Shown here piece by piece: positions 19,401 through 35,015 of a stretch of 64,000 nt of DNA. Origin of the DNA: a virus; IMG/VR virus record IMGVR_UViG_3300016476_001273, positions 1 through 64,000 of that record; one strand, 5' to 3'. A program made the translations under genes and the position numbers. Each line of letters opens with the position of its first letter. Position 1 is the first letter of the stretch. A model generated the notes under the pieces. The model had not been told where the DNA came from, searched no databases, and worked only from the letters and a program-made list of their open reading frames with translations.

Positions 19401-22400
19401 CAGTACTTTGACCTAACGTCGAATGTGTTGAGTGTTTAACATCTGTTGTAAACTCATCAACGTAAACTTCTTTTTCTACTCCTTCGCTTGTTTTCTCTTT
19501 TGTTACTTTTTTAAATAAATAATAAGGTTTATTATCTTTAATAATATATGCTTGTCTAATTAACTCTTTTAAATTTGTTTGTGTTGCAGGTGTAAGAGCA
19601 ATAGCTTCATCTTCAGTTCTATTTAAAGTGTGTTCGTTCATTAAAAAACGAATCTTTAAATCTAACATCTTATTATTAATAATAGGAATAATTAAAATTC
19701 CTTTTTCTTTTTTAAGTTTTTCAAAAACTTCTTCAGATGTAATTAATTTATTTTTTAAAAAAACAACATGAGCAACAACACTCTTAATATGTTTTCTTCT
19801 CTCATGCAATTCTTTTAAATCAGTTAAAATTTTTATAAATTCAAATTTTTCACTTTTAACATTTTTTAATCTAGTAATAATACCTTTTAAATAAGTTTCT
19901 TGAGTTTTTAAATTTTTTGCTAAATCAGAATACTCATCCTCATTTTCAATAATATTAGATATTTTTTCATTTACAAATTTCTTTTTTAAATTTTTTAATT
20001 CATTTTCAAAATCCTCTTGTGATTCTTTATTTAATTTAGTTAAATCATCTTGAGTTAATTCTGATATATTAGATTCTTCTAATATACTTTTAACAATAAC
20101 ATTCTCTCTAGCTTGTTGTTTTAAATATATTATTTCCTTTCTTATTTCTTCATTTATTTTTTCTTTATTATCATTATAAACTTTATCACGACCTTCTTTA
20201 CGAGATTCTTTTTTTTCTTTCTTTTTTCTCTCTAATAAAGAAATAATTTTATCTATTAATTGATTAGTTTTATTAAAATATTCATCTACATTTTCTAGCT
20301 CTTCTTTATAATTTTCTTTAATGACTTCTATAGCTTTTAAAATATCTTGATATTCTTCATTAGTTTCTAATAATTTATTTATTTGATTTTTAATAAATTT
20401 ATTTTTAGTAGTATGATAAAATTTATACATTTCAAATGTATCATGTTCTTCACTCCATACTACTTCTTCTCCATCTTTTTCAAATGTTTCTTTTCTATGA
20501 ATATATAATTTATCAATGTCATAATCACTTCCAGAAAGATATTGAATTTCTTTTGAACACATTATTGTGTTTCCATAATAACTAGGAATATTATCTACCC
20601 ATATTAAATTTATAGCTGAATGTTTATCTTGTGAAGGAATACGTATTCCGAACATTGCAAACAATTTTTCAAAAGGTAAGTTTTTTTTATATTTAGGATT
20701 AGGTATTAATGACTCTGCTCCATAATATTCTACACCTGTTACAATCCCTTCATTATTAAAAGCATAAACGGGTTTTCCAAATCTTAATTGGTCAATAAAA
20801 TATACATCTTCATTTTCTTTATAAATTTCTTTTAATTTTAATGTTAGTTCACTGTCATTTTTACCATTAAATTCGTCATATTCAGCTACATTAGTGAGAT
20901 TAGTTAAAGGACTTTTTTTATGTTTTTCTAAAGCAATTTTATATTCCGGGTCTGATTCTCTAATATATTTCCAAGAATAAATATCATTACCTTCTTCATC
21001 TTTATATTTAACAACTTTTTTAATACTATTAAATCCGTGAGAAGAAACTAACGCCATAGCATCTCCTGCTACTTTTTGTTGTAATACTCCTTTACTAAAA
21101 TGAGACATTAATAAATTAATAAATTTATCAATACTCAAAGACATATTTAAATTATACTTAGGTTGTCCGTTTTCATCTAAAGAAAATATTTCTAATAACT
21201 GGTCATCTGCTCCGCTATTAATTAAAGTTTCTTTAACTTTATCTAAAAATTTATTATATTGTAAAATTAAATTTTTATCTGCTATTTCATTTAAAGCTTG
21301 TTGAAAAGAAAATTCTACTCTATTAATAGATAATCTTCGCCATTCTTTCATCATTTCTCCAATAGAAAACTTTGTTCCATTTAAAGAAACAGTTACATTT
21401 TCATTCTGTTCATTAAGAATGATTTCTAACATTTGAGAACCGTCAATAATACTTTCTTTCCCTGCTGGGTTTTCCATTTGTTGTCCAAAAAAATTTGTGG
21501 ACATCACATTTATAGAACTATTCCAAATTTCATCTTTTTCTTTTTCTTTATATTTTAAATTATCAAATTCTTCTGTATATTTATTAATTGTGAGTTGTTT
21601 AGAAGCAGTTTGTGGTAAATAATAATCTACCCCACTGTTTTCCATTTTTTCTCTTAAATTGTGTAAAGATTCTTTTCCCGGCTTAGCTTTCCATTTTTTT
21701 TCTACATTATCATAATAAGAAGTTAAATCTTTTGTTAACATTACTGTACCTGTTTTAAAATAAAAATATCCGTCATATCCAACAGGTTTAATAACGTTAA
21801 AATACATATTATTATCTTTCAAATATTCTATATCTTCATCTGTTAAAACCTTTCCATCTTTTATTTTAAACAATATTTCAGATGCCTGTTTTGTTAATTT
21901 AGACATAGAATACAAATACTTAATATATGCTTCTACTGTCATATATGATTGAGCATCAGAACTATCAACAGTATTGTTTTTACCATCATCTGTTAAAGGT
22001 TTAAAAGAAATAACTCCTTCAGTATCATTTCCGACAACATAATTAATTTTATCAAAATTTTTAATTCCGGGAATTAAATCAGAATAAAACGTAGTGGCTA
22101 CTGAAAAAATAGCAGCATTTTGACCACCAGCTCTTTTAACAAAATCAGCACCATCATTTTTTACTAATAAAGCACTATCAGAGTTTAATAATTGATTTAC
22201 CCAAATAGTATTAAGCCATGAAGATAGTTCATCATTAATAAATTCATCGTTAGGTAATGCTATGTTTAAATTATTATATCTACTACTAGAAGGCAATAAT
22301 CCTTTTAAGCTTTTAACTAGTTCTTTAAATTCTAAAATATATTCATTTAATTGAGAAACTATTTCTTTTTTATAATTTCTATCTATTTCGTTTATATTTT

Positions 22401-25368
22401 CTTTATTAAAAACTTCAGTAATAATATTATTAAAACTTTTTTTAGAAAGTAATGATTTTACATTATCAGTAAACTGTAATGCTCTAGCATCAGCTTCTAA
22501 TATTGTTATTTTACCATTTTCTTTTTTTATTACATATGTTCCAGTATGATATTTTTCTATAATACCTTCTGCTGTATCTATATCACTATTTTCTAATACA
22601 TTTTTTCTAGTTAATTTTATTTTATATTTCCCATCTTCTTTATCTTTAGTAAGTACTTCTAACCAATTAATAATTTTTGGTTTTTCACTAAACATTCTTC
22701 TTACTTCTTTTAAAATTTCTTTTTCAAATAAATCTATAGCTTTATCTGTAACAACACCTTTTTTAAATAAATCATCTATAACTAACACTTCTTTAAAAGA
22801 AGATGTTCGTTTAGCTTCCATCAAATTTATATGAATAGGTTGAGTATAATTAATAACTTTATTTTCTTCGTCTTTTTCGTTTGATTTTGTTCTAAATGAT
22901 TTTAAATGTAATTTCCAAAGAAGAAAGTCTCTACTTGTCATTTTTCCAAATGTAGAAGCACCTGTATTATTTACATCTAACCCATCAACAGAATAATAAC
23001 TACCTTTTAAAAAAACACTTTTCCATCTACTTTGTTCATCAAAAACAATGTGATTTAATTCTGGATTATCTGTTTGATAAAGAAAACTTGAAGCTTGTTG
23101 TAAAAATTTTCCATCTCCATATTCATATAACTCTCCTTTTTTAATTCTATCTAAATACTCTTCAAAACCTCCTTCACTAAATATTTCATTAAACATGTAT
23201 AATTGAAAAGTCTTATTCTGATAAGAATATCTTGTTTTATTTTCTGCATCTTTATAAGTAGATTCAATTACATCTTCGTTAATTTTAGATGTATTAACAG
23301 CTAATTTTTCTATTCTACTAACAGCTCCTTCTGTATTATCAAACATTAAAGGAGTTTTAATTACACTTCTTGTATCAAACAATGCTTTTTCAAATATTAT
23401 TTTTACATCTTCTAAAGAAGCAGTTGGTTTAAATGTACCTCCAATACTTTTTTCTGTAGAAGAATCAAGAAGATAATCTATATAAGTTTTTTCTACATTA
23501 CCAAAGATTAATTTAATAGCATCATAAACCGTATCTTCTGTAAATCTTTCATTATCAAAATCAGATTTAAGTTTTAATAATTTATTTCTTATTTCTTCTT
23601 TACTCTCAGGATTTAACATTATTTCAGTCCATCTTTCTTTCCACATAGACATTTGAGCTTTTGTAGCACTATTTTGATTAGCATCAAATACTTTAGTATC
23701 AACACTTTTAGATTTAATATCAATTACTATTTTGTTATTATCTCTTTTCCATAAATCAAAACCTTGAAGTATTGTTTGTAAAATAAAAACATTATCTTTT
23801 TTTAATCCTTTAATATTATTAATTATATAATGATTTTCTTTTTTATTTGATTTCCAATCTGAATATAATTTTGTAATATTTTCTTTAAAACTTTCAAATC
23901 TTTTATTAACGTCTTGTTCATTAGTATCAATAACATCACTTATTACCCTATCTAATAAAAGTCTTGTTTCTTTATTTGAAGAAAAAGAAGCAATTGTTAC
24001 AAGTTTATAAAGCCTTTCTAATTCATGAGTTGTATTTTGCATACTTCTTGCTAAAGAATAATATACTTTATTCTTATCAATAGGGGATAAAATACTAATA
24101 TCTTTACCTTCTATTTCAAATTTTCCTATATATTTCCCTGTTGTAGCTATATATGACCTCAACCACGCAGATATTCCTTCAAATCCTTTTTCATTAGCAG
24201 ATATATTATCACTAAAATCTAAACTTGCTACATCATTTTCACTTTCTTCTATTTCTTCATTTTTTAAACTTGACCCTGTAACAATATTTAAATAATTATT
24301 AACATCTTCAGATAAATATTTTAAATTAGGAAGATTAATTAATGTAAACATTTTTTCATAATCTTGTTCATCAGGATTATATTTTTCTTCTTGATGTTGA
24401 GATAATGCAGAAACAAATCTAGGGTTATCACCTTTATCTTCATAATGTTGTCTTAGTTTATCAATAGCAAATCTAATTCTATTTCCTCTATTTGTTAATT
24501 TTAAATTAACAGCTTGTTCCTTAGTAAGTTTTTGATTTAGTTCAATGACAATACTAGCAATACTAGAAATTATAAATTCAGATTCTTTAACAGTAAGATT
24601 TCTTTTTAATACATTATTTGCTTCACTAATATATTCATATTCAATAAGTCTTAGTGTAGGAACATTAGAATCATTACTATCATTTACACTAGATTTAGAA
24701 AAGTTTCCTTTAATAATATTATCAAAGAATACTTCTAAATTTGTATTATTATTTAACTTATTAAATAAATTTTTCAACCATTTAAATAAATTCTCAAGAA
24801 GTTTTAAAATTCCTTTTTTATTAGAAGGAATAATATTTCTATTAAAATATTCTACATATCTTTTAGCAATAGCTTCTTCAATAATTCTTTCTTCTAATTC
24901 TGTTTCATTTAATAAGAGAGCTTTAGGGTAAGCTTTAAGATATGCTTCTTTTTCTTTATTTATATTATTTATTAAAGACATTCCTTCTTTTAAGTATTTC
25001 TGTTTCATACTAGGAGGAATTACTCTTTGAAAAATAGCATGAAAAGTTTCTTCTGCTATTTGCTCTTTAGTGACATTATCTCCAAAATATAATACATCTT
25101 TAAAAAATGCAGCTTGTGTTGCAGGAGGAAGATTTGCAATAATTTCATCCAAATGTTTCACTTGAAAAACATTTTTAGGAAGAAATTCACTAACAATCTC
25201 TTTTAATTTAGCCTCTGAAAAAGCAATAGAATTATTCTTTAATAATTCATTTAATGAAGGAAGAGAAAAAAGATTTTTTCTTCTAAAATAATCTAATACA
25301 TATTTTTCTCCTAAATTACTTACTAGAGAAAGTGTTTCTTTATTTAAACTAGGTATTGAACAATTCAT
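13468..25368 (-). CDS. Virion DNA-directed RNA polymerase (crAss-like) fused to NADAR, macro-like, GNAT and SF1 helicase domains
   Basis: 3966 aa. GIRIPSQDKHS...LSGSDYDIDKLY (DxDxD at about 20509-20526) and ISELISAATDEVKD are crAss-like vRNAP hallmarks. C-terminal motifs IFVFGSNPEGRHGAGAAK, MQNKGMG...FWEKQGF, GSGGTGKS / APTHKAA / DESSM / GDMKQLPP. Confidence 0.9.
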   Translation of the reverse strand: MNCSIPSLNKETLSLVSNLGEKYVLDYFRRKNLFSLPSLNELLKNNSIAFSEAKLKEIVSEFLPKNVFQVKHLDEIIANLPPATQAAFFKDVLYFGDNVTKEQIAEETFHAIFQRVIPPSMKQKYLKEGMSLINNINKEKEAYLKAYPKALLLNETELEERIIEEAIAKRYVEYFNRNIIPSNKKGILKLLENLFKWLKNLFNKLNNNTNLEVFFDNIIKGNFSKSSVNDSNDSNVPTLRLIEYEYISEANNVLKRNLTVKESEFIISSIASIVIELNQKLTKEQAVNLKLTNRGNRIRFAIDKLRQHYEDKGDNPRFVSALSQHQEEKYNPDEQDYEKMFTLINLPNLKYLSEDVNNYLNIVTGSSLKNEEIEESENDVASLDFSDNISANEKGFEGISAWLRSYIATTGKYIGKFEIEGKDISILSPIDKNKVYYSLARSMQNTTHELERLYKLVTIASFSSNKETRLLLDRVISDVIDTNEQDVNKRFESFKENITKLYSDWKSNKKENHYIINNIKGLKKDNVFILQTILQGFDLWKRDNNKIVIDIKSKSVDTKVFDANQNSATKAQMSMWKERWTEIMLNPESKEEIRNKLLKLKSDFDNERFTEDTVYDAIKLIFGNVEKTYIDYLLDSSTEKSIGGTFKPTASLEDVKIIFEKALFDTRSVIKTPLMFDNTEGAVSRIEKLAVNTSKINEDVIESTYKDAENKTRYSYQNKTFQLYMFNEIFSEGGFEEYLDRIKKGELYEYGDGKFLQQASSFLYQTDNPELNHIVFDEQSRWKSVFLKGSYYSVDGLDVNNTGASTFGKMTSRDFLLWKLHLKSFRTKSNEKDEENKVINYTQPIHINLMEAKRTSSFKEVLVIDDLFKKGVVTDKAIDLFEKEILKEVRRMFSEKPKIINWLEVLTKDKEDGKYKIKLTRKNVLENSDIDTAEGIIEKYHTGTYVIKKENGKITILEADARALQFTDNVKSLLSKKSFNNIITEVFNKENINEIDRNYKKEIVSQLNEYILEFKELVKSLKGLLPSSSRYNNLNIALPNDEFINDELSSWLNTIWVNQLLNSDSALLVKNDGADFVKRAGGQNAAIFSVATTFYSDLIPGIKNFDKINYVVGNDTEGVISFKPLTDDGKNNTVDSSDAQSYMTVEAYIKYLYSMSKLTKQASEILFKIKDGKVLTDEDIEYLKDNNMYFNVIKPVGYDGYFYFKTGTVMLTKDLTSYYDNVEKKWKAKPGKESLHNLREKMENSGVDYYLPQTASKQLTINKYTEEFDNLKYKEKEKDEIWNSSINVMSTNFFGQQMENPAGKESIIDGSQMLEIILNEQNENVTVSLNGTKFSIGEMMKEWRRLSINRVEFSFQQALNEIADKNLILQYNKFLDKVKETLINSGADDQLLEIFSLDENGQPKYNLNMSLSIDKFINLLMSHFSKGVLQQKVAGDAMALVSSHGFNSIKKVVKYKDEEGNDIYSWKYIRESDPEYKIALEKHKKSPLTNLTNVAEYDEFNGKNDSELTLKLKEIYKENEDVYFIDQLRFGKPVYAFNNEGIVTGVEYYGAESLIPNPKYKKNLPFEKLFAMFGIRIPSQDKHSAINLIWVDNIPSYYGNTIMCSKEIQYLSGSDYDIDKLYIHRKETFEKDGEEVVWSEEHDTFEMYKFYHTTKNKFIKNQINKLLETNEEYQDILKAIEVIKENYKEELENVDEYFNKTNQLIDKIISLLERKKKEKKESRKEGRDKVYNDNKEKINEEIRKEIIYLKQQARENVIVKSILEESNISELTQDDLTKLNKESQEDFENELKNLKKKFVNEKISNIIENEDEYSDLAKNLKTQETYLKGIITRLKNVKSEKFEFIKILTDLKELHERRKHIKSVVAHVVFLKNKLITSEEVFEKLKKEKGILIIPIINNKMLDLKIRFLMNEHTLNRTEDEAIALTPATQTNLKELIRQAYIIKDNKPYYLFKKVTKEKTSEGVEKEVYVDEFTTDVKHSTHSTLGQSTAHKNIVTGKKNIGVAVVGNLLHLFSKKADINLRSFITIEDITPYGKDGLHVLTETTLSNFNISKNVKLQRIADIISELISAATDEVKDQQNAKYGLTIEALNIVVPILMLGGSLDFAIRLVNTKGVREYLNKVDLKDNIAKTEDETEELSYSNEMILNNLFNSYKEKGYKTTPLSIVDLKEGKFEANALELAAKMLQISKEVGLAKYVIGLKKGLGKTLEEFEDGEEKINSTTKETLSDNHITTSALVFSKKNLNESLGIYKHQIKLHEYISELLNKNIISRREKFRKFKYLFLNNFKPATYDEAKNWMNDKMISFFYSRLYFSFLEKRNDFSENDFRNFTNKPLEEIEKEWKDFVSDVISGKANIKEELMKEIKQNPLLIKLKTNNQGRIYAPTFIKGDIATNISLLESYEDLHTKLSNTPYKDLMWKLFHYSIRKDGWTFKGGSLSKVIPPVFYTDHSKSLDMFLFEEDGLVENSLFGGKYTPEYLTFLAIERSVKEKEGLKYVRKTNSKQDGIWKNIYKNKTIKLSDLASLSEDKLTWLVDKGYIVISPERKIYPQFPLYHYFSEINTDTNKPENVLHKIKNVKAKFKDGNIREVTVPQYAYYYGEIQQVLETTYEAVVVEEKPNVISLPVKKNIVIEKLDEIKEIEQEQQSSVKGINIKKDKTQYNSLANRLTNPSEYSTLEYNVESIYKKNSSKFDVNTKQRILNNKVVSEEQALKHDMNLMYKLQVEKFEKHPELIDEINAKGGLEFIKNSSHIIGVPNSRWEGEGMNSNFIKVLAKSYEKVAKELGKFLENPNVPVTSKESNINSNNQNFNFSNNEPVLVGDKNNVENTVEVKTVQEENKINQLSNSEEIYNQLGNISENVVIDEVNGKKPVVENQNYYEGNIKPEPNTIFVFGSNPEGRHGAGAAKIAKEQFGAIYGQGEGLQGNAYALPTKDLRVKENNGFKSISFEQIVKNIQKLYEVARQNPNKQFKIGYRNTIDKSLNGYTGLEMIEMFNQAGEIPFNIVFSKEWIDTGKITQSSKPIVAYRTETNQPNVETTKEEKIDIVNKLKQFTKKHNLSFNWSDFQTNIFTPLEILNKFFEKGMEFAKNEEEEKQIFPKYFGLDGEGLSVTIEKENENKWYFSSLYLPEFMQNKGMGKDIVDMVKYIASESDKTIYLWSEEQAVGFWEKQGFKKTGEKITESDKHFYDKNLPPFEVMEIKIKGNQRGSETNKEENLENISKNISTPALNFGFKNQKTKIIPQGSNPSNDVIFEDDDFVYLMNDQQQIAFNNIKNKIDEIFTKYSYLKSDEKATFNNSYLDAVYKGKVLKEMYDNMYGLQGSGGTGKSSLSKAIKKYITNKYPHKTLVFSAPTHKAATVLQESLGYDSEKVDEGNVFTNASLVGSTKENSDVFELSPDGNYFRRNKPKFGADIDVIIFDESSMIDVSFIEALQKRLMSKVVGNNKKIPFMLFLGDMKQLPPINQSSGFNRGFITMAILNGNKSSKLTQIMRTSDEFFNQIYNSIGNQIEKNIQKRLETPVNETFTPNPYDYTEFLRLIEKPQGNLFVYNTEEAILKDYANELFKTNNPRKAYYSHYNRIDNPYTMTVLKKIRDNFMEMIFGTTSHLNHSIPFSQVDDYLDKFGGKNILNEKGISSIKESELTNIPQFIEIENIRNFIFGDYVQSPDNFPLASSTFTIHSEDINPYALSVMRSINKQDKGFNLKLNGEVFFDGKGSFKPTSRYRVLDIIQKRYNSKSYFDNIINDFSLSTQFGNSKLAKNINDKRNNPEDVKIDGIYINPEMNLILETILLYTRQDRVRAYSYFMNTYTTYTYEDDGKDEMMNTINARNIFIMRQANTDKIIIKLAIPYKITFQEESGVSYLLNQLGSNQKEFKTSKDRFYSQNVFQKSYLGSSHTTQGDGFEKIYGGISNVLGQQNVKEDAKASSVYTILTRSMKEIAVLNTSSNYSKFSPNDLQSFDELSNDNAPNCNFI

Positions 25369-28300
25369 TAATTACAAGGTTTTACTTTTTCTAAATATAA
25401 TTTATAAATTTCATTCATCTTAGGTTTTAATATTGCTTTCAATTTATGTAGAGGTGCTTCATTTTTTATTAATAATTTAAAGGCTTTCTCCATATTTTCA
25501 TCATTATTAATAACTTCCTCTAACACGTAAAAATTACTTTTATTAAATACTAAAATCTCTTTATTTTTTACATTCATATTTTGTAACTCTATAGTTCCAA
25601 AAGTACTAAAAAATTTAATTAATTCTGATTCATTCTCAACATTTAATTCTGGTGAGATTTGTTCTCTTATCTCAACTTCTTGTTCTACTTTTTCTTCTTT
25701 AATGACAGTTGGTGTAGTAATTTCTAAAAATGAAGATTTATCTTCTTTAAATAGTTTAGGAGAATCTTCAACTACTTCCACTCTATCATGAAAAAAACTA
25801 TAAGTAGTATCATTTCTCATATCGTCAGAGCCACTTTTAAACTCTATACCTTTAACCACATGAGAATTTTGTGCAACAACATCTTCATATGTTTTAAATT
25901 TTTTAGAAGTAGAACTTACAAAATTAATAGATATATTTTTTAAAAAATTATTAAAATTTACATCTTTTTCATCTGTAACAGGATTAAATTTTTTATTTAT
26001 ATCTTCTTTAATCTTTCTTTTTAAAAATTCTATTGTATTTTGTTTTTTTACTCCGTCTAAATTATAATTTCTTCTCCAAAAAATAGTTTTTCCATTATTA
26101 TCTTTATATCCATAAAGTATACTAATACCTAAAATTTTTTCTTTTTCGTTTTCAAAATTATTATATTCAACTTTATATATTTCAAATTTAGTATTTAATT
26201 GTTCTTGTACACCACTAATATTAATAAACCATCCGTCATCTCTAACATCACCTTTTTTTTCATTTGTTTTAATTAGTGATACTAAATCTGTTGTATCAGG
26301 TAAAGATATATTTTTTGATACTAAATTTTTTACATAAGGTCTATTAGTTTCTGTATCTGTAAAAATTAAATTAAAACCATTAGATAAAAAAGTAGCTGGA
26401 GAATTAGCTAATACAACTTCTCCCTTTTCGTTTACTATTGTTTCATTTAATTGTGCTATTAATTTAATTTTAATTTCTTCTTGTAAACTTTCAGGAATAC
26501 TTCCATAAAAAGTTCCTCCTTGAATCGCTTCTTTAATTATATTTCTAAAATCCGCATTATTAGAAAAAGCAGTTTCTTGTTCATTAATTTGTTCATAAAG
26601 AATTTTTAAATATAATACTGCTGTATATTGATTACCGTTTTCATCTATAACTTTATTATTAGGAAGCTCATCAACAGGTACTAATTCTGTATAATTACTA
26701 TTTAAAGTTGACTTTTGTAATGTTTTAGAAGAAATATAATTAGTAAGTAATCTTTTTAATTTTACATTTTCTCCTTTTAATGATTTTTCTAATGTTTTTT
26801 GTCTTTCAATAGATAAATCTAAATAACTTTTTTCTATACCTAAATTATTTAAAAGTTCTTCTAATTTATTAGTATTATTTTCTTCTAAATATTCAATAAC
26901 ATTAAATAAAGAGACATATCCACTAATAGATTCAAAATTTTTAGCATTAACAATGTTTTTACTATTAAAATTAAAATTATCTTTTAATTCAATTCTTAAA
27001 GATTGTAAATATTGCTTACTAATTCCCCAACCATTTCTTAAATCTCTATATTCTTGTAAAATAATTTCTTCATCATCTTGTTTAGTAGAAATTACAAAAA
27101 TAGGAGCATTGTTAATTTTTAATAATTTACCTCCTGCTATTTCTTGTTTTTCTATTTTATCTAATGTTATTATTGTTTTATCAACTTTAAAATCTATATC
27201 ACTAACATTATTTATAGAATTTAAAAATTTCCTACGTTTTAATAACATTTCATTTCCTTTTTTCTTATTTAATACTCCTAACCCTGTATCATTTAAATAA
27301 AAATCATTTTGCATAAAAATAATATTATCTTTTGAATTAGGAACTGAACTAACAGGTTTACTTATTGGAGGAATCGGTGTTCCTGTATTTTCATTTTCTT
27401 TATTTAATAATAGTTCATCTTCATTTTGTTCTATTTCTTGAGTAGATTCTAATTGTTGATTTTCTATATTGGATTCAAGTGTTTCTGATTTTTCATCATT
27501 TAATGATTGTTCTGTTTCACGTTCATCAATTATATTCACAACAGCTTTTTCAGTTACTTTCCACCCAGTATTTGTTTTTGCAACTACTCCTTCTTTTAGT
27601 ATATCCATCTTTGTAGGAGTAAAACTTAACTTATTAAATTCTAAAGAATTTTGAAAAACGTTTAAATTTTGTATAATAGTATTAACTGTTGATAAAGACG
27701 TATTAGGAATTAATCTACCAGTTTTTCCATTTTCATCAGGAATAATTTGAAAATAAAATTCATCTGTAGATTTTTTTATATAATTATTATCAAATTCTCC
27801 ATTTTCATTATTTCCTCCAAAATAAAGAATTGTAAATTCTTGTCCTTCTAAATCTTTTGTATTAAAATTTTCTTCTAACTTTTCTAGTTCTTCCTCAACA
27901 CTTTTTCTTAATTCAGGAGTATTATACTTATTAAGTATTTTTTGTTCATCTGGTGTAAACTCCGTAATCATTTTACCAGATTCCATTTCTTTATAAAGTT
28001 CTTTAGCTAATTCTTTATCATATTCAGCATTAATTTCTATATACTCATTTACTAATTTTTCAGCATCTTCTCTATTAGCTAATCTATTTGCACCTTTAGG
28101 ATATTTAGGAGTAAAATAAACATTTCTTTCTATAACAGCTAATCTTCCTGAAGAAATAACATCTATATTTTTACCAAAAGTGAATATTAGTTTTTCTTGT
28201 CTCCTTTTTTCTATATCTTCTTTAATAACATCAACAATTTCTTTTTTCTTTTCTGGAACTACATCTTGTGTATTAGACTGGTTTTTATTTTTAATATTAC

Positions 28301-31300
28301 TTAAATAAGTATTCCAGTTATCTAAAAGTGTTTTTATTTTATTATATTGAATATTTTTGTCAAAACCTTGATTTAAATTATTAATATCAATTGTTTCTTT
28401 TTGGTATAATAATAAATTTATTTGTTTACTATTTAATGATTTTTCTCCTTTACTAAAAAGAGGATGAAAATCTTTCAAATTACCTTTTTGTAAATCTAAA
28501 CCACCTTCATAATTTATTTCTTCTGTCAATATATCACCAACAAGTTTAAATAAAGGGTTATCATAATAACGTTCCATTTCAGGAACAGTTCCTTTAATAA
28601 CCCATCCATCTGTACCAAAACCAAAAAAAGGATACCATCTGTTTTTTTCTTTTCCACCTGTACCTTTACTACTCCTATAAAATGGAACTATATCATTTCC
28701 TAATTTCATAAAAACAATGGGTCTATCTACTGTCCAACCTAAATGAACATCATTAATATCATTTGAAAGTTTTCCATCAACATTTAAACTTGTTAAAATA
28801 CCTAATTCAATTAATTTATTTATTTTTTCACTATAAGATAAATTTTCTAATTGTTTTTTTATAGTGTCTTTATCTAAAAATAAAGGTTCAATAAAATCAG
28901 AAGTGTTTTCTATAAAACTTAAAAACTTATCATTTGTACCTGTTAAATATTTTCCATATAACTGAAATCCTATAATGTTTCTAATATTTTGATATAATAA
29001 AGGATGTTTTTCTTTAAGCTTTTTATCAAACACTCCTTTATATAAAACATTTTCACCTTCTATGTAAACATATATATCAGATAAAGAATTTCCATCATAT
29101 TTAACACTTACGATTTTATTATCGTAAATAAAACTAAACTCATCATTGTTAATAACTTTATTTAAATTTGTAGGAACATGATACCCAGAAAAACCTATAT
29201 GTCTACCTTCAATTCTTCCTTTAAATAAATCATCTATTTGAGTATCATCTCCTAGATTTCCAGTAGTAATTAATTCAAGTATATTTGGAAATTTTAACTT
29301 TATATCAGAAATAAATTTTAATACATCATCAGCACTTCCTATATAAATAGTAAAATCTGATTCTCCTATTTCTCCACCAGCGAGATGTTTAAATGGTTCT
29401 CGTTCATTTCCACTATCATCTTTAATAATATAATGGTTTTGAAGATTTTTAGAATTAGCTTTTTCTTTACTTCCGAAATACTCTAAAAGAAAATTTATGA
29501 GTTTTTCTGCTTTTTCATTATATTCTTTATCTATAGATTGTCCATAATAAGAATTATTTGTTTTAGAATTTTTTATGTTAAATCTAATCTTCCATCCAGA
29601 TTGTCCACCTTTTACATTACCATTTGAAAGTCTATTTTGTGTTTTATAATCTAATGAATTTAATATTTTTTCTCCTAATTTTAAATTTTCCTCTTTTATT
29701 TCTTTTTGTATTCTTCTTTCTATATCAGCTTTTTTAGCTTCTATATCTGTAGCAGTTTTACTTTTTAAAGTGGCTAGTTCTGCATCATATTTAGCATTGA
29801 TTTTACTTATTTTGGATTTAGTTGACTTAGCAGCTTTTTCTATATTTTGTTGGTTTTTGTTTATATATTCTTGAACTAAAGGATTTTCATCAGAACCTTT
29901 TTGTATATCTTCAGGAACCAAATTAGCAATGATATAATCAAGAAAATCACTAAGCTCTTTATTAGTTGGATTGTTTTTAACTTCTTCATGTAAATTATTA
30001 AAAGCTTCTCTTACAGTACTACCATAAGTTTGAAACTCCTTAAATTTTTTATCATATTCGTACAAACCTGTATTGCTTAATTCTTCTTGTCTTCTTCTTT
30101 CTATATCAGCTTTTTTAGCTTCTAATTCTGCTTCTTGTTGTTTTTGTGTATTTTGTTGGTTTAAGGATTCTAATTCTTTATCATATTTATCATTGATTTG
30201 TTTTTCTTTATTTTCATCATACCCTTTCTTTTGTGCATGAGATAAAATTTCTTTTGCCTCTTCTCTTGATGTATTATGAATATCATATTCTAGTCCACTT
30301 TTACTTATTACAATGACAACATTTCCTTCTTCATCAAGAACATTTTTATAATATTTACTAAATCCTTTTACAATAGTATAATTTTTTCCTTTAGATGTAA
30401 ACTCTGTAATAGCTTGAAAAAACATACCTAAAAGTTTCCATAATGTTTCATCACGGTGATTTGTAAAATCTAATGTTTTTGCTAAATCTGCTTCTTTTTT
30501 TAATCTGTCCTCTACATAAACAGTTTCAAATCTTCTTCTTTTTTCTATATCATCTTTAACTACTTCTAATACATCTTTTTTATCTGGATTGGGAATAGGT
30601 TTTAATGTACCATCTTCATTTTGATAAAAAATTAAACCTTCATTCACATAGTAATTAGATGTTCCTATTTGGCCTTCTATTTCTGATTTTGTGGAAGAAG
30701 GTGTTTTTAAAGTTGTTACTAATTTATTATTTTCATCAAACTTTAGTGTATATATAAATGGTGAGGTTTTAGCTAACTTTAAATCAAAAGGAAGAGGATT
30801 AAAATTTTCTACATCTATTTTGTTTTTAAAATCTCCTTCAAATTTTTCTTTCTTATAAGATACAGGAATAACAACAATGTTTATATTAGGTTTATATCCT
30901 AATGTCTGTTCTAACATTATTGAATATGCTGTTTGCTGGTCAGTCCATTTTTCTTTATCTGATTTTTGTTTTTTACTAAACGGTTTTTCTATTTTATCTT
31001 TATTTATAGGATAGCGAGAATCATTTTCTGCTTTTGTTTTAAAATCATAAATATGTACAATACCTTTACTATCAACAACAACCATGTCTAATGTTCCTGC
31101 CACTCCATCCCATCCTTCTTCTAATTTAATATCTGTATGAACAAATATTTCATCTGTAATGAATACTAAATTATTATCATTTAATTGTTTTTTAATATCA
31201 TCTTGTATTTGTTTAAATTTGTTCTTACTCTCATTAAATATTTTTTCTACTTCTATTTTTGTAAATTGTTCTTTTCCGTCTTTGGTTTCTTTTTCTTTTA

Positions 31301-34300
31301 ATGCTTTCTGAAACTCTTCTATTGTTAAATTATTATTTTTAAAATACATTCTTGCAAACACATCAAAATAATTACCAACAACTAAAGAATTTTTTATATT
31401 TGTAACTTTATCTTTATCAGTAAAATCTAATAAATCACCAATAAAATTACTTACTCTTTTATATAATTTTCCTAAAAAACTATAATGTGATTCTTTATCT
31501 TTAGTTTCTTTTATTAATTTTGCTTTTTTACCATCTTCTATAAGACTATTAATTTTATCAAGTGTTGTTTTTTGTGAAGAAGAAATATTTTCATTATTGT
31601 TTCCTGTTTCATTATTTATTAGTTTACGGAAATAACTTTGTAAATCACGGTCAGTAATTTGTTTTTCAATTATCTGCTCTTCAATCAATGTTAATTTTTC
31701 ACCATTCAATTGTTTTTTATAAATCTCTTTAGTTATTTCTATAGTAAGGTCAGGTTTTCCTACAATTCTCCACTTACTCATATCATTTTCATATGTATTT
31801 AACATACCAAGTAAAACTTCTTCTTTTAAATACAGTTTAATTGAAGGGTAATTTGGGTCAACAGTATAATATTTATTAATTGTTTTATCTAAAACATAAG
31901 AATAAACAGCAACTATTTTATCACTATAATTATATACCTCAATTTCAAATTTATCTCCTAAGTCATTTAAACTTTTTAATGTAAAAGGTAATTGACTCGT
32001 AGATGATGAATCCGAACTTGGGAGTACATTAGGTTCATTATTTATTATTTTAGAAACATCATCTAATTTTTCTTTATCTACTACACTTGTAGCTTCTTTT
32101 TCTTTTTCTTTTTCAGCATCTTTAGATAAATCAGGAGTTTCTTGACTTTTATTAACAACATTATCTTTAACCTTTTCAACAGGTTTTAATTTATCTTTAA
32201 ACTTTTGAATTACAGATTCTTTTTGAGTTTTCTTTTCTTCTTTACTTAGTTTATCATTTTCTTCTATTTGAATAATTTCACTAATAATATCTAACTTTGT
32301 TTTATGAGACTCTTTATCAAATTCTTTATCTACTTCTTTTTTAATATTCTTTAATCTTTCTTCTTTAGCAAAAAATTCATCTAAAACTTTAAAATAATCT
32401 TTATTTTCTTCTAAATAAAAATTAAAATCATTATATAATTTTTTATATCTTTTTATCGTATTGCTATTATTAGATAAGGATTCGTCTATTATTTTTATAT
32501 CATTTGCTTTAACTAAATCCTCATATGCTGTTTTAGTTGTGTTTTCATTATTATTTTCAATTAAGTTATAAGCATCTGCAATATTTTGAAGATTGACATT
32601 ATCTAATACTTCTATCTCTTCTCCGTCTTCGTTTTCAATTACTTCATACGTAGTTGATTTTTTTATTAAATCTAACGCATTTTCTAATCTTTTTAATTCT
32701 TCTTGTACATTAGTATAATCTTGTGTATCTGGTTGTACTAATTTTAATGTATTAATTCTATTTTCTAATTCAGAATAATCAGAAATAAGAAATTTAGAAA
32801 GACTATTTATTTTAGGAGACATTAACCCATTTCTTCTTTCTTTTTGTCTATCAATCATAAATTTCATATGAGACAATTCTCTTTTGTATTTACTATATTT
32901 TATTTGAGTAAGAGGGTCTTTGAAATCATCATTAAATGAAAATTTTATTGTTTTAGAAATATTTTCTATTTTATTTAACTTATCTAAAACATCATTTACA
33001 AATGAGGTATGGTCACGTGTTTGCTCATTTATATCAATATTATATAATTGATTAATAACTTTTACAGGGCTACTAGCTATTTGACTAAGATGGTCTTTAA
33101 AAACATCTTGTTTTCCTGTTTCTACAACATCATGTAATATTTGAGAAATATGTCTGTCTTTAATATTATAATACCATCTTTGAGCATGAACACTTTCAGA
33201 TTTTAAAATATTTTCTAATACTGATAAACTATTTAAACTAGAAAGAGCTTGATTATATTTTTCTTCTAATGTTCCTCCTAAACTATTTTGATTTAAACTG
33301 TTACTCAAAATATCTATTAACATTTTTTTATCTTCTTCTGTAACAGATTCTTTCATACTATCTTTAGAAAATATTGACTTAGAAAGTTCTTCTAATTTAG
33401 AAGCTATTATTTCATTTTGTGCAATTTTATTTTTTAATCTATTAGAACCTGTAGCTATTTCATAACCAGTATTAAAAGTTTGCTGAATACCTCCTCCAAT
33501 ACTACCCATTAAAAAAGATTGTATAGCTTCTTTATTAAGACCTTTATCAGCAATAGTCTTAAACATTTCACTTATATATTCTCCTGTCTTAATAGATGTT
33601 TCTGGGTGCATATAAACACCTTTATATAATGAATTACTATATTCATCTATTATATATTGCATATATTCTTCCATTCCTTCTGAAAAAGATAAAGGAATTT
33701 TAGAATATTCTTGACCATATTTTATAGTTTTTTCTGCCGCATTTTTGAGAAATTTTCCTACTTTACCTTCTGGAGTCCAGTTTAATTTAATATCTTTTGT
33801 TTTTTTAACAGAAAATTTTCCACTATCACTAACTATTTCTCCTAATGTATTTTCACCAAATACTTTTTTACTAAATTTTTCAGCTCCGGGAAAAGTTTTT
33901 AATAATGCCCCCATTTGTAAATAATTAGGAATCATTAAAACTGCTAGATTTAACCCATATCTCATGTCACCAATTTCTTGAGCTGTGCTTTTTATATTTT
34001 CTAAAGTTTTTTGGTCTGGTAACATACCAAAATTATTTTCTTTATATTTTTGAATAGCTTCTTCTTCAAATCTTTTAGCTCCTTCAAGTCCTTCAAACGC
34101 GGATTCAAAATGTGAACCAGCATACATTCTATATAATTGTGGGGCTTCTTCAATTCCTTTTCCAATTAAATAACCTACTTCTCCTATTACTTTTCTAACA
34201 TTATCTTCTTTATTTATAGCTTTAAACAAAGAAAGTATTTTATCTAATTTTGCAGGATTATTTAAGTATTTAGATATTCTTCCTCCCAATCCTGCAAGTT

Positions 34301-35015
34301 TAGTTCCTTTAGATATAACACTTCCTATATTTCCTGTTAAAAAAGCTTCTGCCATAGCTCCCACTGTATATCCACTTGAAGCTACAATATCTTGAAACCC
34401 ACCATCTCCAAAAAAAGGTATCATATCTCGTATCCAATTTTCCTTACTCCAATTAGATTTATAATTTCTATTATTTTCTGCTACTTCATTTGAAAATTCA
34501 AAAAGAGTTTTATTTAATCCACTATCCCATCCTACATTAAAAAATTCAGAAATAGGTTTATCTCTTCCAGATAGATAACCTGCTACATTAATAGTACTAC
34601 CAATAATATTAGGTATTGCGGCTAATCCACCTATAAATGAAGAACTAGCTGCTACTCCAAAATTTTTAGCTGTATTTAAATATCTTTCAGTATCTGTTTG
34701 AGTACTCCTCATAAGAGCCTCATAGTTATCATCAAATTTTATTCTTTCACTAATTTCATCTCCTTTATTAATTTTTTTTAATTCATCAGGAGTTACTTTT
34801 ACATATTTATCTTGATATTGTTCATCAATTTTATCTAAATCAACTTTAGGACTATTTAAAATATCTCTTTGTATTTTTTTAATAATATCTTCTTCTTTTT
34901 TCTCTGTAGGAATAGGAGAAAACTCTGGAGAATTTAAAGGAGAATTTAAAGAAATATCAAAATCTAAAGGTGATAATTTAGGAGCTTCTATTTTAGGTAT
35001 TAATATTTTATCCAT
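25368..35015 (-). CDS. Giant ejected virion protein with PD-(D/E)XK nuclease and repeat-bracketed variable domains
   Basis: 3215 aa. Gly/Ala-rich hydrophobic N-terminal region and SEGMEEYMQ motif typical of the crAss-like protein upstream of the RNAP. AGTLDMVVVD...IYDFKT nuclease motif. TAATG overlaps at both ends. Confidence 0.75.
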   Translation of the reverse strand: MDKILIPKIEAPKLSPLDFDISLNSPLNSPEFSPIPTEKKEEDIIKKIQRDILNSPKVDLDKIDEQYQDKYVKVTPDELKKINKGDEISERIKFDDNYEALMRSTQTDTERYLNTAKNFGVAASSSFIGGLAAIPNIIGSTINVAGYLSGRDKPISEFFNVGWDSGLNKTLFEFSNEVAENNRNYKSNWSKENWIRDMIPFFGDGGFQDIVASSGYTVGAMAEAFLTGNIGSVISKGTKLAGLGGRISKYLNNPAKLDKILSLFKAINKEDNVRKVIGEVGYLIGKGIEEAPQLYRMYAGSHFESAFEGLEGAKRFEEEAIQKYKENNFGMLPDQKTLENIKSTAQEIGDMRYGLNLAVLMIPNYLQMGALLKTFPGAEKFSKKVFGENTLGEIVSDSGKFSVKKTKDIKLNWTPEGKVGKFLKNAAEKTIKYGQEYSKIPLSFSEGMEEYMQYIIDEYSNSLYKGVYMHPETSIKTGEYISEMFKTIADKGLNKEAIQSFLMGSIGGGIQQTFNTGYEIATGSNRLKNKIAQNEIIASKLEELSKSIFSKDSMKESVTEEDKKMLIDILSNSLNQNSLGGTLEEKYNQALSSLNSLSVLENILKSESVHAQRWYYNIKDRHISQILHDVVETGKQDVFKDHLSQIASSPVKVINQLYNIDINEQTRDHTSFVNDVLDKLNKIENISKTIKFSFNDDFKDPLTQIKYSKYKRELSHMKFMIDRQKERRNGLMSPKINSLSKFLISDYSELENRINTLKLVQPDTQDYTNVQEELKRLENALDLIKKSTTYEVIENEDGEEIEVLDNVNLQNIADAYNLIENNNENTTKTAYEDLVKANDIKIIDESLSNNSNTIKRYKKLYNDFNFYLEENKDYFKVLDEFFAKEERLKNIKKEVDKEFDKESHKTKLDIISEIIQIEENDKLSKEEKKTQKESVIQKFKDKLKPVEKVKDNVVNKSQETPDLSKDAEKEKEKEATSVVDKEKLDDVSKIINNEPNVLPSSDSSSTSQLPFTLKSLNDLGDKFEIEVYNYSDKIVAVYSYVLDKTINKYYTVDPNYPSIKLYLKEEVLLGMLNTYENDMSKWRIVGKPDLTIEITKEIYKKQLNGEKLTLIEEQIIEKQITDRDLQSYFRKLINNETGNNNENISSSQKTTLDKINSLIEDGKKAKLIKETKDKESHYSFLGKLYKRVSNFIGDLLDFTDKDKVTNIKNSLVVGNYFDVFARMYFKNNNLTIEEFQKALKEKETKDGKEQFTKIEVEKIFNESKNKFKQIQDDIKKQLNDNNLVFITDEIFVHTDIKLEEGWDGVAGTLDMVVVDSKGIVHIYDFKTKAENDSRYPINKDKIEKPFSKKQKSDKEKWTDQQTAYSIMLEQTLGYKPNINIVVIPVSYKKEKFEGDFKNKIDVENFNPLPFDLKLAKTSPFIYTLKFDENNKLVTTLKTPSSTKSEIEGQIGTSNYYVNEGLIFYQNEDGTLKPIPNPDKKDVLEVVKDDIEKRRRFETVYVEDRLKKEADLAKTLDFTNHRDETLWKLLGMFFQAITEFTSKGKNYTIVKGFSKYYKNVLDEEGNVVIVISKSGLEYDIHNTSREEAKEILSHAQKKGYDENKEKQINDKYDKELESLNQQNTQKQQEAELEAKKADIERRRQEELSNTGLYEYDKKFKEFQTYGSTVREAFNNLHEEVKNNPTNKELSDFLDYIIANLVPEDIQKGSDENPLVQEYINKNQQNIEKAAKSTKSKISKINAKYDAELATLKSKTATDIEAKKADIERRIQKEIKEENLKLGEKILNSLDYKTQNRLSNGNVKGGQSGWKIRFNIKNSKTNNSYYGQSIDKEYNEKAEKLINFLLEYFGSKEKANSKNLQNHYIIKDDSGNEREPFKHLAGGEIGESDFTIYIGSADDVLKFISDIKLKFPNILELITTGNLGDDTQIDDLFKGRIEGRHIGFSGYHVPTNLNKVINNDEFSFIYDNKIVSVKYDGNSLSDIYVYIEGENVLYKGVFDKKLKEKHPLLYQNIRNIIGFQLYGKYLTGTNDKFLSFIENTSDFIEPLFLDKDTIKKQLENLSYSEKINKLIELGILTSLNVDGKLSNDINDVHLGWTVDRPIVFMKLGNDIVPFYRSSKGTGGKEKNRWYPFFGFGTDGWVIKGTVPEMERYYDNPLFKLVGDILTEEINYEGGLDLQKGNLKDFHPLFSKGEKSLNSKQINLLLYQKETIDINNLNQGFDKNIQYNKIKTLLDNWNTYLSNIKNKNQSNTQDVVPEKKKEIVDVIKEDIEKRRQEKLIFTFGKNIDVISSGRLAVIERNVYFTPKYPKGANRLANREDAEKLVNEYIEINAEYDKELAKELYKEMESGKMITEFTPDEQKILNKYNTPELRKSVEEELEKLEENFNTKDLEGQEFTILYFGGNNENGEFDNNYIKKSTDEFYFQIIPDENGKTGRLIPNTSLSTVNTIIQNLNVFQNSLEFNKLSFTPTKMDILKEGVVAKTNTGWKVTEKAVVNIIDERETEQSLNDEKSETLESNIENQQLESTQEIEQNEDELLLNKENENTGTPIPPISKPVSSVPNSKDNIIFMQNDFYLNDTGLGVLNKKKGNEMLLKRRKFLNSINNVSDIDFKVDKTIITLDKIEKQEIAGGKLLKINNAPIFVISTKQDDEEIILQEYRDLRNGWGISKQYLQSLRIELKDNFNFNSKNIVNAKNFESISGYVSLFNVIEYLEENNTNKLEELLNNLGIEKSYLDLSIERQKTLEKSLKGENVKLKRLLTNYISSKTLQKSTLNSNYTELVPVDELPNNKVIDENGNQYTAVLYLKILYEQINEQETAFSNNADFRNIIKEAIQGGTFYGSIPESLQEEIKIKLIAQLNETIVNEKGEVVLANSPATFLSNGFNLIFTDTETNRPYVKNLVSKNISLPDTTDLVSLIKTNEKKGDVRDDGWFINISGVQEQLNTKFEIYKVEYNNFENEKEKILGISILYGYKDNNGKTIFWRRNYNLDGVKKQNTIEFLKRKIKEDINKKFNPVTDEKDVNFNNFLKNISINFVSSTSKKFKTYEDVVAQNSHVVKGIEFKSGSDDMRNDTTYSFFHDRVEVVEDSPKLFKEDKSSFLEITTPTVIKEEKVEQEVEIREQISPELNVENESELIKFFSTFGTIELQNMNVKNKEILVFNKSNFYVLEEVINNDENMEKAFKLLIKNEAPLHKLKAILKPKMNEIYKLYLEKVKPCN
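28003..30575 (-). repeat. Dispersed coding repeats DIE[KR]RR (4 copies) and IN[AD][KE]YD[AK]EL (3 copies)
   Basis: Exact 33-nt repeat ttcttctttctatatcagcttttttagcttcta at 29711-29743 and 30092-30124. Degenerate copies near 28190-28240 and 30525-30575. Closing motifs near 28003-28040, 29765-29810 and 30165-30200. Confidence 0.85.

Follow-up and report, generated by a model that had tools for sequence, protein, structure and literature searches.

Conserved helical brackets around variable inserts in a giant, probably injected protein of a crAss-like phage

Introduction

Giant cargo and polyvalent proteins of phages are known to be mosaic. How distant phages exchange whole domains of such proteins in frame is a question for which the locus described here offers a specific sequence device. 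We analyzed a 64,000-nucleotide (nt) stretch (the window; positions 1 to 64,000 of IMG/VR virus record IMGVR_UViG_3300016476_001273), which is part of a record of 136,013 bases estimated to be 92% complete by CheckV. Its minus strand encodes a giant protein of 3215 amino acids (aa), here P0001, in which short conserved peptides, termed openers and closers, bracket unrelated inserts. We propose that this region probably encodes several bracketed cassettes in succession, within a giant protein carried as virion cargo, and that the DNA encoding a conserved helical hairpin serves as a pair of in-frame exchange tracts. Exchange of cassettes at conserved boundaries is already known, as a kind of process, from phage conflict proteins. 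What is new in brackets as recombination boundaries for in-frame domain exchange is the defined hairpin and its nucleotide-level conservation across unrelated phages. We found no paper describing the bracket or its motif strings; subscription journals and supplements were outside this search, so a prior description is possible.

Results and discussion

The initial annotation had listed four openers and three closers in this protein. A script located all seven, at the stated positions, in one minus-strand open reading frame (ORF). Handles such as X3 and X17 denote sequencing runs, of which 20 from 8 studies hold parts of the window. The following features make up the gene and its bracketed region.

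25368..35015, minus strand: P0001 gene (3215 aa), the single ORF holding all seven motifs
30564..30659, minus strand: pre-opener segment (aa 1453-1484, GTSNY..GLI.Y.N.DG..P..NP), which travels with unit 1; a joint at 30657
30531..30563, minus strand: opener 1, VVKDDIEKRRR (aa 1485-1495), a weak variant and the weakest of the four (9.8 bits); joint in an X3 contig at 30536
30201..30530, minus strand: insert 1 (110 aa), swapped for another 294 nt in an X3 contig and for another insert in P0043
30171..30200, minus strand: closer 1, QINDKYDKEL (aa 1606-1615); joint in an X3 contig at 30199
30078..30122, minus strand: opener 2, EAKKADIERRRQEEL (aa 1632-1646), with DNA equal to the cross-phage consensus
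29805..30077, minus strand: insert 2 (91 aa), all-helical, with homologues of 63-80% identity in otherwise unrelated giant proteins
29775..29804, minus strand: closer 2, KINAKYDAEL (aa 1738-1747), with the DNA of the commonest closer 27-mer; a block shared with P0004 ends inside it
29700..29741, minus strand: opener 3, EAKKADIERRIQKE (aa 1759-1772), an apparent orphan with no matching closer
28914..29699, minus strand: domain A (aa 1773-2034), with an opener and a closer around it in 13 other proteins and neither in others
28260..28892, minus strand: domain B (aa 2042-2252), unbracketed; upstream of unit 1 in P0003 and the X17 contig
28188..28229, minus strand: opener 4, VIKEDIEKRRQEKL (aa 2263-2276); joint of the hybrid opener of P0003 and the X17 contig at 28217
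28038..28187, minus strand: insert 4 (50 aa), also bracketed in P0027 (86% identity)
28008..28037, minus strand: closer 3, EINAEYDKEL (aa 2327-2336)
29711..29743, no strand: exact 33-nt repeat, copy 1, inside opener 3
30092..30124, no strand: exact 33-nt repeat, copy 2, inside opener 2

The window thus holds three pairs in which an opener and then a closer flank a variable insert within one ORF, plus one orphan opener. As initially described, the inserts are unrelated (best E 0.37 in an all-against-all blastp comparison) and the two 33-nt strings are identical, within a repeat that extends to 54 nt at 91%. The stretch of ~490 aa after opener 3 indeed lacks a closer, but it cannot be treated as one cassette, since it consists of two modules, domains A and B. 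Opener 3 appears to be an orphan left by rearrangement, because domain A is bracketed in 13 homologues and domain B occurs as a separate unbracketed module elsewhere in P0003, a close relative of P0001. Bracketed copies of domain A are found, for instance, in P0006, P0007, P0010-P0012, P0014, P0015, P0023, and P0024, and an unbracketed copy in P0017. Hidden Markov models (HMMs) of both motifs were built from homologues and run on the six-frame translation of the 136-kb genome, which has 314 ORFs of 60 aa or more. They matched the P0001 gene only (four openers and three closers at E ≤ 0.01; next best match elsewhere at E 0.033). Because a single gene in the genome is matched, the motif pattern is real and no by-product of a composition rich in Lys and Glu.

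The opener-closer pair is widespread in viruses. Openers and closers mostly alternate in 29 homologues obtained from a large protein search, although isolated pairs without neighbouring pairs occur. We also scanned IMG/VR viral contigs for the closer alone, using a degenerate DNA pattern that covers its nine residues. At least 119 contigs matched; all figures on viral contigs given here and below hold among the matches listed. These contain 132 closers in 119 ORFs. An opener directly precedes the closer in the same ORF in 110 of the 132 cases (spacing 13-264 aa, median 80), six closers are truncated at the locus boundary, and 16 lack an opener. Conversely, 110 of 113 openers are followed by a closer. 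Tandem units are closely spaced, with a closer-to-opener gap of -1 to 10 aa in 9/11. Host ORFs are longer than 1000 aa in 94/119 cases, with many ORFs trimmed by the ends of the fetched loci. Among prokaryotes (one genome per species, 185,579 species), the closer pattern occurred 24 times, always in metagenome-assembled genomes and with the same architecture inside giant ORFs.

The bracketed content is highly diverse. The 101 distinct units from the matches listed fall into 77 insert clusters, and some hairpin units are "empty", their loops measuring 13-20 aa. A Pfam scan of 79 units (those of the 101 with inserts of at least 40 aa) yielded a match for only three, one each to Peptidase_M78 (E 3.6e-5), UPF0180, and the ATLF metalloprotease family (E 8.8e-4). 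The domain pool looks enzyme-rich but mostly unannotated. As a separate observation, precomputed Pfam labels on bracket-carrying host proteins include PF12684, PF13671, PF01443, and PF13604. The bracket itself has no model in Pfam, PHROGs, or NCBIfam; a profile search of PDB sequences gave one match (E 0.81), and the protein atlas gave nothing usable.

Modules of the window recur individually. Each is found at widely differing positions in giant proteins that are otherwise unrelated, and at least six P0001 modules occur separately in this way. A single-protein search for relatives with aa 1306-2472 found none in viral contigs. With the same region, tblastn against isolate phages recovered domain B only, in Cellulophaga phages. 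An empty unit used as tblastn query gave nothing in isolate phages at E ≤ 1, and the degenerate opener and closer just before domain B in g067 of Cellulophaga phage phi14:2 surfaced only with the HMMs.

Comparison of close relatives places rearrangement joints within the motifs. P0002 is identical to P0001 and was left out of all counts. P0003 shares most blocks with P0001 at 97-99% identity (94% in the unit 1 block), with the modules rearranged as follows.

P0001 aa 1-993: equivalent to P0003 aa 1-993
P0001 aa 2042-2252 (domain B): equivalent to P0003 aa 996-1206
P0001 aa 1463-1639: equivalent to P0003 aa 1247-1423
P0001 aa 2267-2799: equivalent to P0003 aa 1421-1953

In P0003 the last two blocks share the DIE core, which is common to openers 2 and 4; unit 1 and insert 4 are thus connected by a hybrid opener with nothing else in between. 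The X17 contig (19.9 kb, depth 200) carries the same hybrid opener in its DNA, and both P0003 and this contig are without unit 2 and domain A. The X17 joint connects 28217 to 30137 through 29 intervening letters that form the first half of an opener-3-type sequence, with a net in-frame loss of 1890 nt. Parts of the gene that X17 leaves uncovered were not used as evidence, except where they are spanned by a joint in its long contig. Over aa 1158-1741, P0004 has 97% identity to P0001, but it diverges after KINA inside closer 2. In an X3 contig (depth 60), 336 nt between 30199 (closer 1) and 30536 (opener 1) are replaced in frame by 294 other nt, with 105 and 3753 matching bases on the two sides; the window-type insert 1 persists in run X3 at a depth of about 3. 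P0043, a more distant relative, keeps the pre-opener context of unit 1, followed by a different insert and then a unit 2 homologue. Relatives with identical inserts in a fixed order would have spoken against exchange at the motifs, and P0003, X17, P0004, and X3 all depart from such an order.

Overall, 5 of 11 block ends fall in motifs (within 3 aa), while motifs plus tolerance make up 3.9% of the protein (binomial P 3.5e-5). The six others lie at aa 378, 993, 1158, 1463, 2042, and 2252. Brackets are therefore favoured, not exclusive, breakpoint sites. The initial annotation suggested looking for deletion reads between the 33-nt repeats; the simple 381-nt deletion was not among 15 of the 31 joints, which is no evidence of absence because contigs drop rare variants. 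Joints from 29798-29809 to 30081 in X3 and X7 were not counted, since their sides span only 26-33 nt and may come from other organisms, bracket DNA being common to other phages.

Two sequence variants of the bracket were seen in these and other homologues. The element GTSNY..GLI.Y.N.DG..P..NP precedes openers of the V(V/I)K.DIE type and stands before different inserts in P0003, P0004, P0043, and P0049; it may be an extended N-terminal bracket subtype. In P0004 (aa about 1573-1625) and P0043 (aa about 1604-1650), the closer runs into ..Y(I/V).AVK.GE(M/I)TKEQA..AL...GR..S.AYAEL..LEG. This ending resembles a short helical module that has been placed within the closer or joined to it.

Distant phages share cassettes with the same boundaries. 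Among 166 compared units, 58 pairs share a block of at least 85% identity. Sixteen of these pairs are collinear relatives whose block extends past the bracket on both sides, and two belong to the same lineage, with a block ending outside the bracket on one side; neither group was counted as transfers. In the remaining 40 pairs, the block ends -9 to +20 aa from the opener core and -9 to +17 aa from the closer core. They represent, by our count, at least 11 independent insert families, and over the 100 aa beyond the bracket identity on at least one side is at random level (11-28%). At the DNA level, the cassette was the sole blastn match in five of eight locus pairs compared over up to 15 kb (L033/L043, L033/L049, L053/L075, L057/L038, and L059/L069), at 91-94% identity and with both ends inside opener and closer. 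The pair L031/L081 shows a cassette match plus one 52-nt closer-to-closer match. Between two contigs that are otherwise 99-100% identical (L107 and L022), L107 has about 88 extra aa flanked by a 39-nt direct opener repeat. This insertion (L107:766-1107) lies inside the motif, and the inserted piece carries an opener and no closer of its own.

Codon choice within the brackets is conserved beyond the peptide. We examined 111 distinct closer sites from the viral contigs listed (locus GC content 24-45%) and derived expected counts from the codon usage of each ORF. The closer Ile is encoded by ATC in 74/111 sites (11.0 expected, P 4e-47), the first Ala by GCT in 101/111 (62.9 expected), the second Ala by GCA in 90/111 (37.7 expected), and Leu by CTA in 61/111 (11.9 expected). 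The two Ala positions thus consistently use different codons. The test was repeated on the complete scan of prokaryote genome contigs, which does not share the incompleteness of the viral sample, and again ATC (17/25 vs 2.2 expected, P 7e-13), GCA (17/25 vs 8.8), and CTA (10/25 vs 2.3) were in excess. Openers, which were selected by no DNA pattern, use ATA for Ile in 78/92 sites (38.4 expected, P 2e-17). The resulting consensus DNA is about 45 nt long in the opener and about 42 nt long in the closer. Its codons are exactly those of opener 2 and closer 2 of the window, and the conservation spans phages of 24-50% GC. Such synonymous conservation of a coding motif across very different base compositions is unusual in itself. 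Protein-level selection does not explain this codon choice, which fits repeated copying between phages or selection on the nucleotides. Together with the cassette-only homology that ends in brackets, it lends independent support to the earlier suggestion that the conserved DNA ends act as recombination points.

Structure predictions agree with the helical hairpin that had been proposed for each motif pair. An empty unit of 66 aa, modelled with AlphaFold from a 16-sequence alignment (predicted local distance difference test (pLDDT) 79.8, predicted template modelling score (pTM) 0.61), forms two helices (residues 5-26 and 34-65). Two-helix hairpins ranked top when this model was compared with 48,161 PDB chains. 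It superimposes on the designed helical hairpin 5izs_A (Z 8.7, 66/66 residues at 2.0 Å), Nup58/45 (2osz_A, Z 8.0, 2.2 Å), and the Mycobacterium tuberculosis RNA polymerase (RNAP) beta-prime insertion MtbSI (5uh7_B, 2.2 Å). Unit 2 of the window with its flanks (aa 1598-1780, nine-sequence alignment) gave an all-helical model (pLDDT 71, pTM 0.44), in which confidence peaks on opener 2 and closer 2, and closer 2 and opener 3 form one continuous helix. Two-helix hairpin chains, including the designed 6dkm_B and 6dlc_A and also 3udc_A and 6qeq_A, align over 57-74 residues drawn from the model range of about 25-165. This range corresponds to opener 2 and closer 2 with the insert skipped, which supports hairpin pairing. 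A Foldseek search with model 1 gave weak antiparallel coiled coils, none of them at E ≤ 0.001. The models thus support an opener and closer packed as an antiparallel two-helix hairpin; a failure of the two motifs to pair would have spoken against it. Antiparallel coiled-coil hairpins that carry or constitute lineage-specific insertions, such as MtbSI, and the designed hairpins 5izs_A and 6dkm_B share with the bracket the two-helix antiparallel form (66 residues at 2.0-2.2 Å for the empty unit). Unlike homologues, however, these designed and natural hairpins, MtbSI included, show only 8-15% identity, and the similarity is geometric, implying neither homology nor shared function.

Based on these results, we propose that each cassette would be a variable domain displayed as the loop between two conserved helices, which pair in antiparallel fashion into a hairpin of about 55 aa (opener consensus ..EAKKADIE[KR]RRQEEL; closer helix consensus KINAKYDAELAAL). 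By clamping both ends of the insert, the hairpin would allow any self-folding domain, from 13 to >260 aa, to fit without disturbing its neighbours, and in tandem arrays the closer leads directly into the next opener. The 40-45 nt encoding each helix, near-identical in many unrelated phages including at synonymous positions, could act as short homology tracts. Recombination at these tracts, between co-infecting phages or between units of one gene, would swap, insert, or delete cassettes in frame. We infer homology-driven recombination as the mechanism from the location of the breakpoints and the conserved DNA, and the inserts may be host-directed effectors. The 136-kb record (92% complete) has no opener or closer outside the P0001 gene and hence no spare bracketed cassette, so donors must be other phages and the genome holds no within-genome switching system. 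We tentatively entertain a stronger form, in which the bracket is a shared in-frame docking adaptor, comparable to an integron for domains. Here the identity of the bracket DNA would be selected or recognized by an enzyme, any phage with a bracket would draw injected-effector domains from a common environmental pool by short-homology recombination during co-infection, and the hairpin would aid the separate refolding of each domain after threading through the tail.

Several points weigh against this overall explanation. Breakpoints at domain edges are also expected from selection for intact domains, six of the 11 block ends lie outside motifs, and domain B moves unbracketed, so brackets are not required for exchange. 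The 33-nt repeat of the window is weak DNA-level evidence, being only mildly above what a conserved peptide and AT-rich codon usage produce (openers 2 and 3 share 12/12 codons vs 8.8 expected from genome codon bias). The synonymous conservation could reflect recent spread or another constraint at the nucleotide or translation level instead of selection for recombination, and the viral closer sample behind it is not exhaustive. RecT, ERF, and YqaJ recombination genes were not found in the genome, in a search limited to these families. Pairing within the hairpin is read from pTM, secondary structure, and structural-alignment ranges, model confidence is moderate, and Z scores of 7-9 are ordinary for helical models. 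Of the "effector cassettes" named in the initial annotation, the gain and loss of cassettes stands; an effector role is unproven, with a Pfam match in only 3/79 units. Packaging and ejection of P0001 are suggested by synteny and partial homology.

An alternative explanation is that the two helices are a mere structural linker or spacer, that recombinants cut inside domains are lost, and that the DNA homology plays no mechanistic part. The block ends outside motifs, the mobility of unbracketed domain B, a 33-nt repeat close to the codon-bias expectation, and the missing RecT, ERF, and YqaJ all fit a linker. Such a linker would not account for fixed synonymous choices (the rare ATC and CTA, and the two distinct Ala codons) in loci of 24-50% GC, nor for crossovers inside the motif itself, as in the hybrid opener of P0003 and X17 and the 39-nt direct repeat of L107. 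We therefore regard a passive linker as unlikely. Less probable still is that another protein recognizes the brackets, such as a protease for maturation or auto-processing that frees the domains, or a packaging or refolding factor; this interaction would account for their strong conservation, with exchange as a side effect. A plain coiled-coil hairpin would require far less peptide conservation than is seen. In the passages available, Iyer et al. (2017) argue that a peptidase domain processes polyvalent proteins into units (PMC5512222), and Bayfield et al. (2023) propose that cargo partly unfolds during ejection and then refolds (PMC10172136). However, a Pfam scan found no peptidase domain in P0001, cleavage would need one inter-domain site and not a pair around each domain, and single brackets lie deep in giant proteins whose other domains have none. 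Recognition is compatible with bracket-mediated exchange and not exclusive of it. That the units are diverged tandem duplicates with only their terminal helices recognizable, or chance matches in a helical protein rich in Lys, Glu, and Asp whose AT-rich codon bias inflates DNA repeats, is rejected as very unlikely, given inserts of 13-264 aa in 77 clusters from 101 units among the matches listed, both all-helical and strand-rich, motif HMMs that match no other ORF of the genome, and an opener before 110/132 closers in loci selected by the closer alone.

Exchange at bracket DNA has partial precedents. Iyer, Burroughs, Anand, de Souza, and Aravind (2017) describe polyvalent proteins as mosaic and raise cassette-like recombinational variability as a possibility (PMC5512222, in the available text). 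Like P0001, these are giant multidomain proteins thought to be delivered with invading DNA, with architectures that differ between relatives. P0001 likewise consists of many separable, varying domains, and P0003 and P0004 differ from it by whole modules. The hallmark polyvalent domains (MuF, ART, MPTase, methylase-helicase, and the LPD families in Pfam) were not detected in P0001. The available text of that paper describes no conserved bracket around domains, and the words "linker", "coiled", and "shuffling" are absent from it (PMC5512222). In polymorphic toxins, a conserved carrier is combined with variable domains swapped by cassette recombination at a conserved boundary (Zhang et al. 2012, PMC3482391, in the passages available). 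The openers and closers, with breakpoints inside them, are likewise conserved boundary motifs at which variable domains swap. According to the same passages, the variable toxin domain is C-terminal, with an immunity gene and silent cassettes at the same locus (PMC3482391). By contrast, the cassettes described here lie within the protein, have a bracket at either end, and frequently occur in series, in a genome without a spare cassette. T-even phages provide a further parallel. Conserved motifs of their tail-fibre adhesins reportedly flank variable segments and serve as recombination points (Tetart, Desplats and Krisch 1998), so that short conserved coding motifs act as in-frame crossover points between related phages in both cases. 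Tail fibres, however, bind receptors and are not ejected cargo, their motifs form no helical hairpin, and exchange is among close relatives, whereas bracket DNA is found here in otherwise unrelated phages.

The bracket can be recognized by two short motifs with 40-45 nt of consensus DNA, and it delimits domain families, at least 77 of them and mostly without annotation, across at least 119 viral contigs. Candidate injected domains in metagenomes can be catalogued simply by means of it. A hypothesis open to testing also follows, namely that domain exchange is driven by short conserved homology. The bracket further suggests a natural plug-in site for a chosen domain in a phage-delivered protein, for use in laboratory phage-host systems.

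Genomic context and further observations

The gene neighbouring P0001 suggests a virion cargo function.

13468..25368, minus strand: neighbour of P0001 (3966 aa), similar to a virion RNA polymerase (vRNAP), with a crAss-type vRNAP catalytic motif, a PIF1/AAA_30 helicase, and GNAT

An alignment of the neighbour with gp66, the vRNAP of Cellulophaga phage phi14:2 (a crAss-like phage), covers the catalytic motif (E 4e-8; GSDYDIDKLYI in the neighbour and GSDFDIDKMYV in gp66, with the shared form GSD(Y/F)DID). In the neighbour, the RNAP motif lies at aa about 1610, a GNAT-like region at aa 3112-3177, and the C-terminal PIF1/AAA_30 helicase at aa 3307-3493. The P0001 gene is directly upstream of this giant RNAP gene, the same position that g067 holds before g066 (gp66) in phi14:2, where the record annotates g067 as a virion structural protein from tandem mass spectrometry proteomics. 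Domain B of P0001 is homologous to part of g067 (E 2e-16). Matches between the two proteins are confined to domain B and a closer. A weak similarity (24% identity, E 2e-6) links P0001 aa 216-585 to a structural protein of csAssE-Sib, an epsilon crAss-like phage. P0001 had no Pfam match better than E 0.068 and none in PHROGs, and its N-terminal 1000 aa and C-terminal part had no match at E 1e-5 in 143 fetched loci. Three of these loci matched the RNAP core, and 16 carried the motif GSD[FYW]D[IVL]D[KQR].

With 24-30% identity over short stretches to known relatives, the phage appears to be a distant crAss-like phage from fresh water. P0001 is probably injected with the phage DNA as virion cargo of the polyvalent type, a reasonable reading in view of the syntenic vRNAP gene and of a domain B homologous to part of g067. 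In crassvirus virions, several giant proteins associated with RNAP are kept as cargo, such as gp45-gp50 of phiCrAss001 (Bayfield et al. 2023, PMC10172136, in the passages available). P0001 resembles Crassvirales cargo and RNAP-associated proteins in its size, its place beside the virion RNAP gene, and, through g067, its domain B. No bracketed cassette array is described in those passages (PMC10172136).

One homologue of insert 2 stands alone. P0033 (209 aa) starts inside insert-2 family sequence, has no opener, and carries a degenerate closer. It may be a free-standing cassette form or a fragment from a contig end.

Variation within the P0001 gene also occurs far from the brackets. In the X17 contig, 108 nt at 25661-25770, in the part of the gene encoding the C-terminus, are replaced in frame by 111 nt, and 129 nt at 26465-26595 are replaced by a diverged in-frame stretch of equal length. 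In run X3, depth falls to 23-28 at 27826-28884 (domain B, unit 4, and about 60 aa beyond), compared with about 60-65 in the flanks, and a short-sided joint skips this stretch. This hints that most of the X3 population lacks or replaces it.

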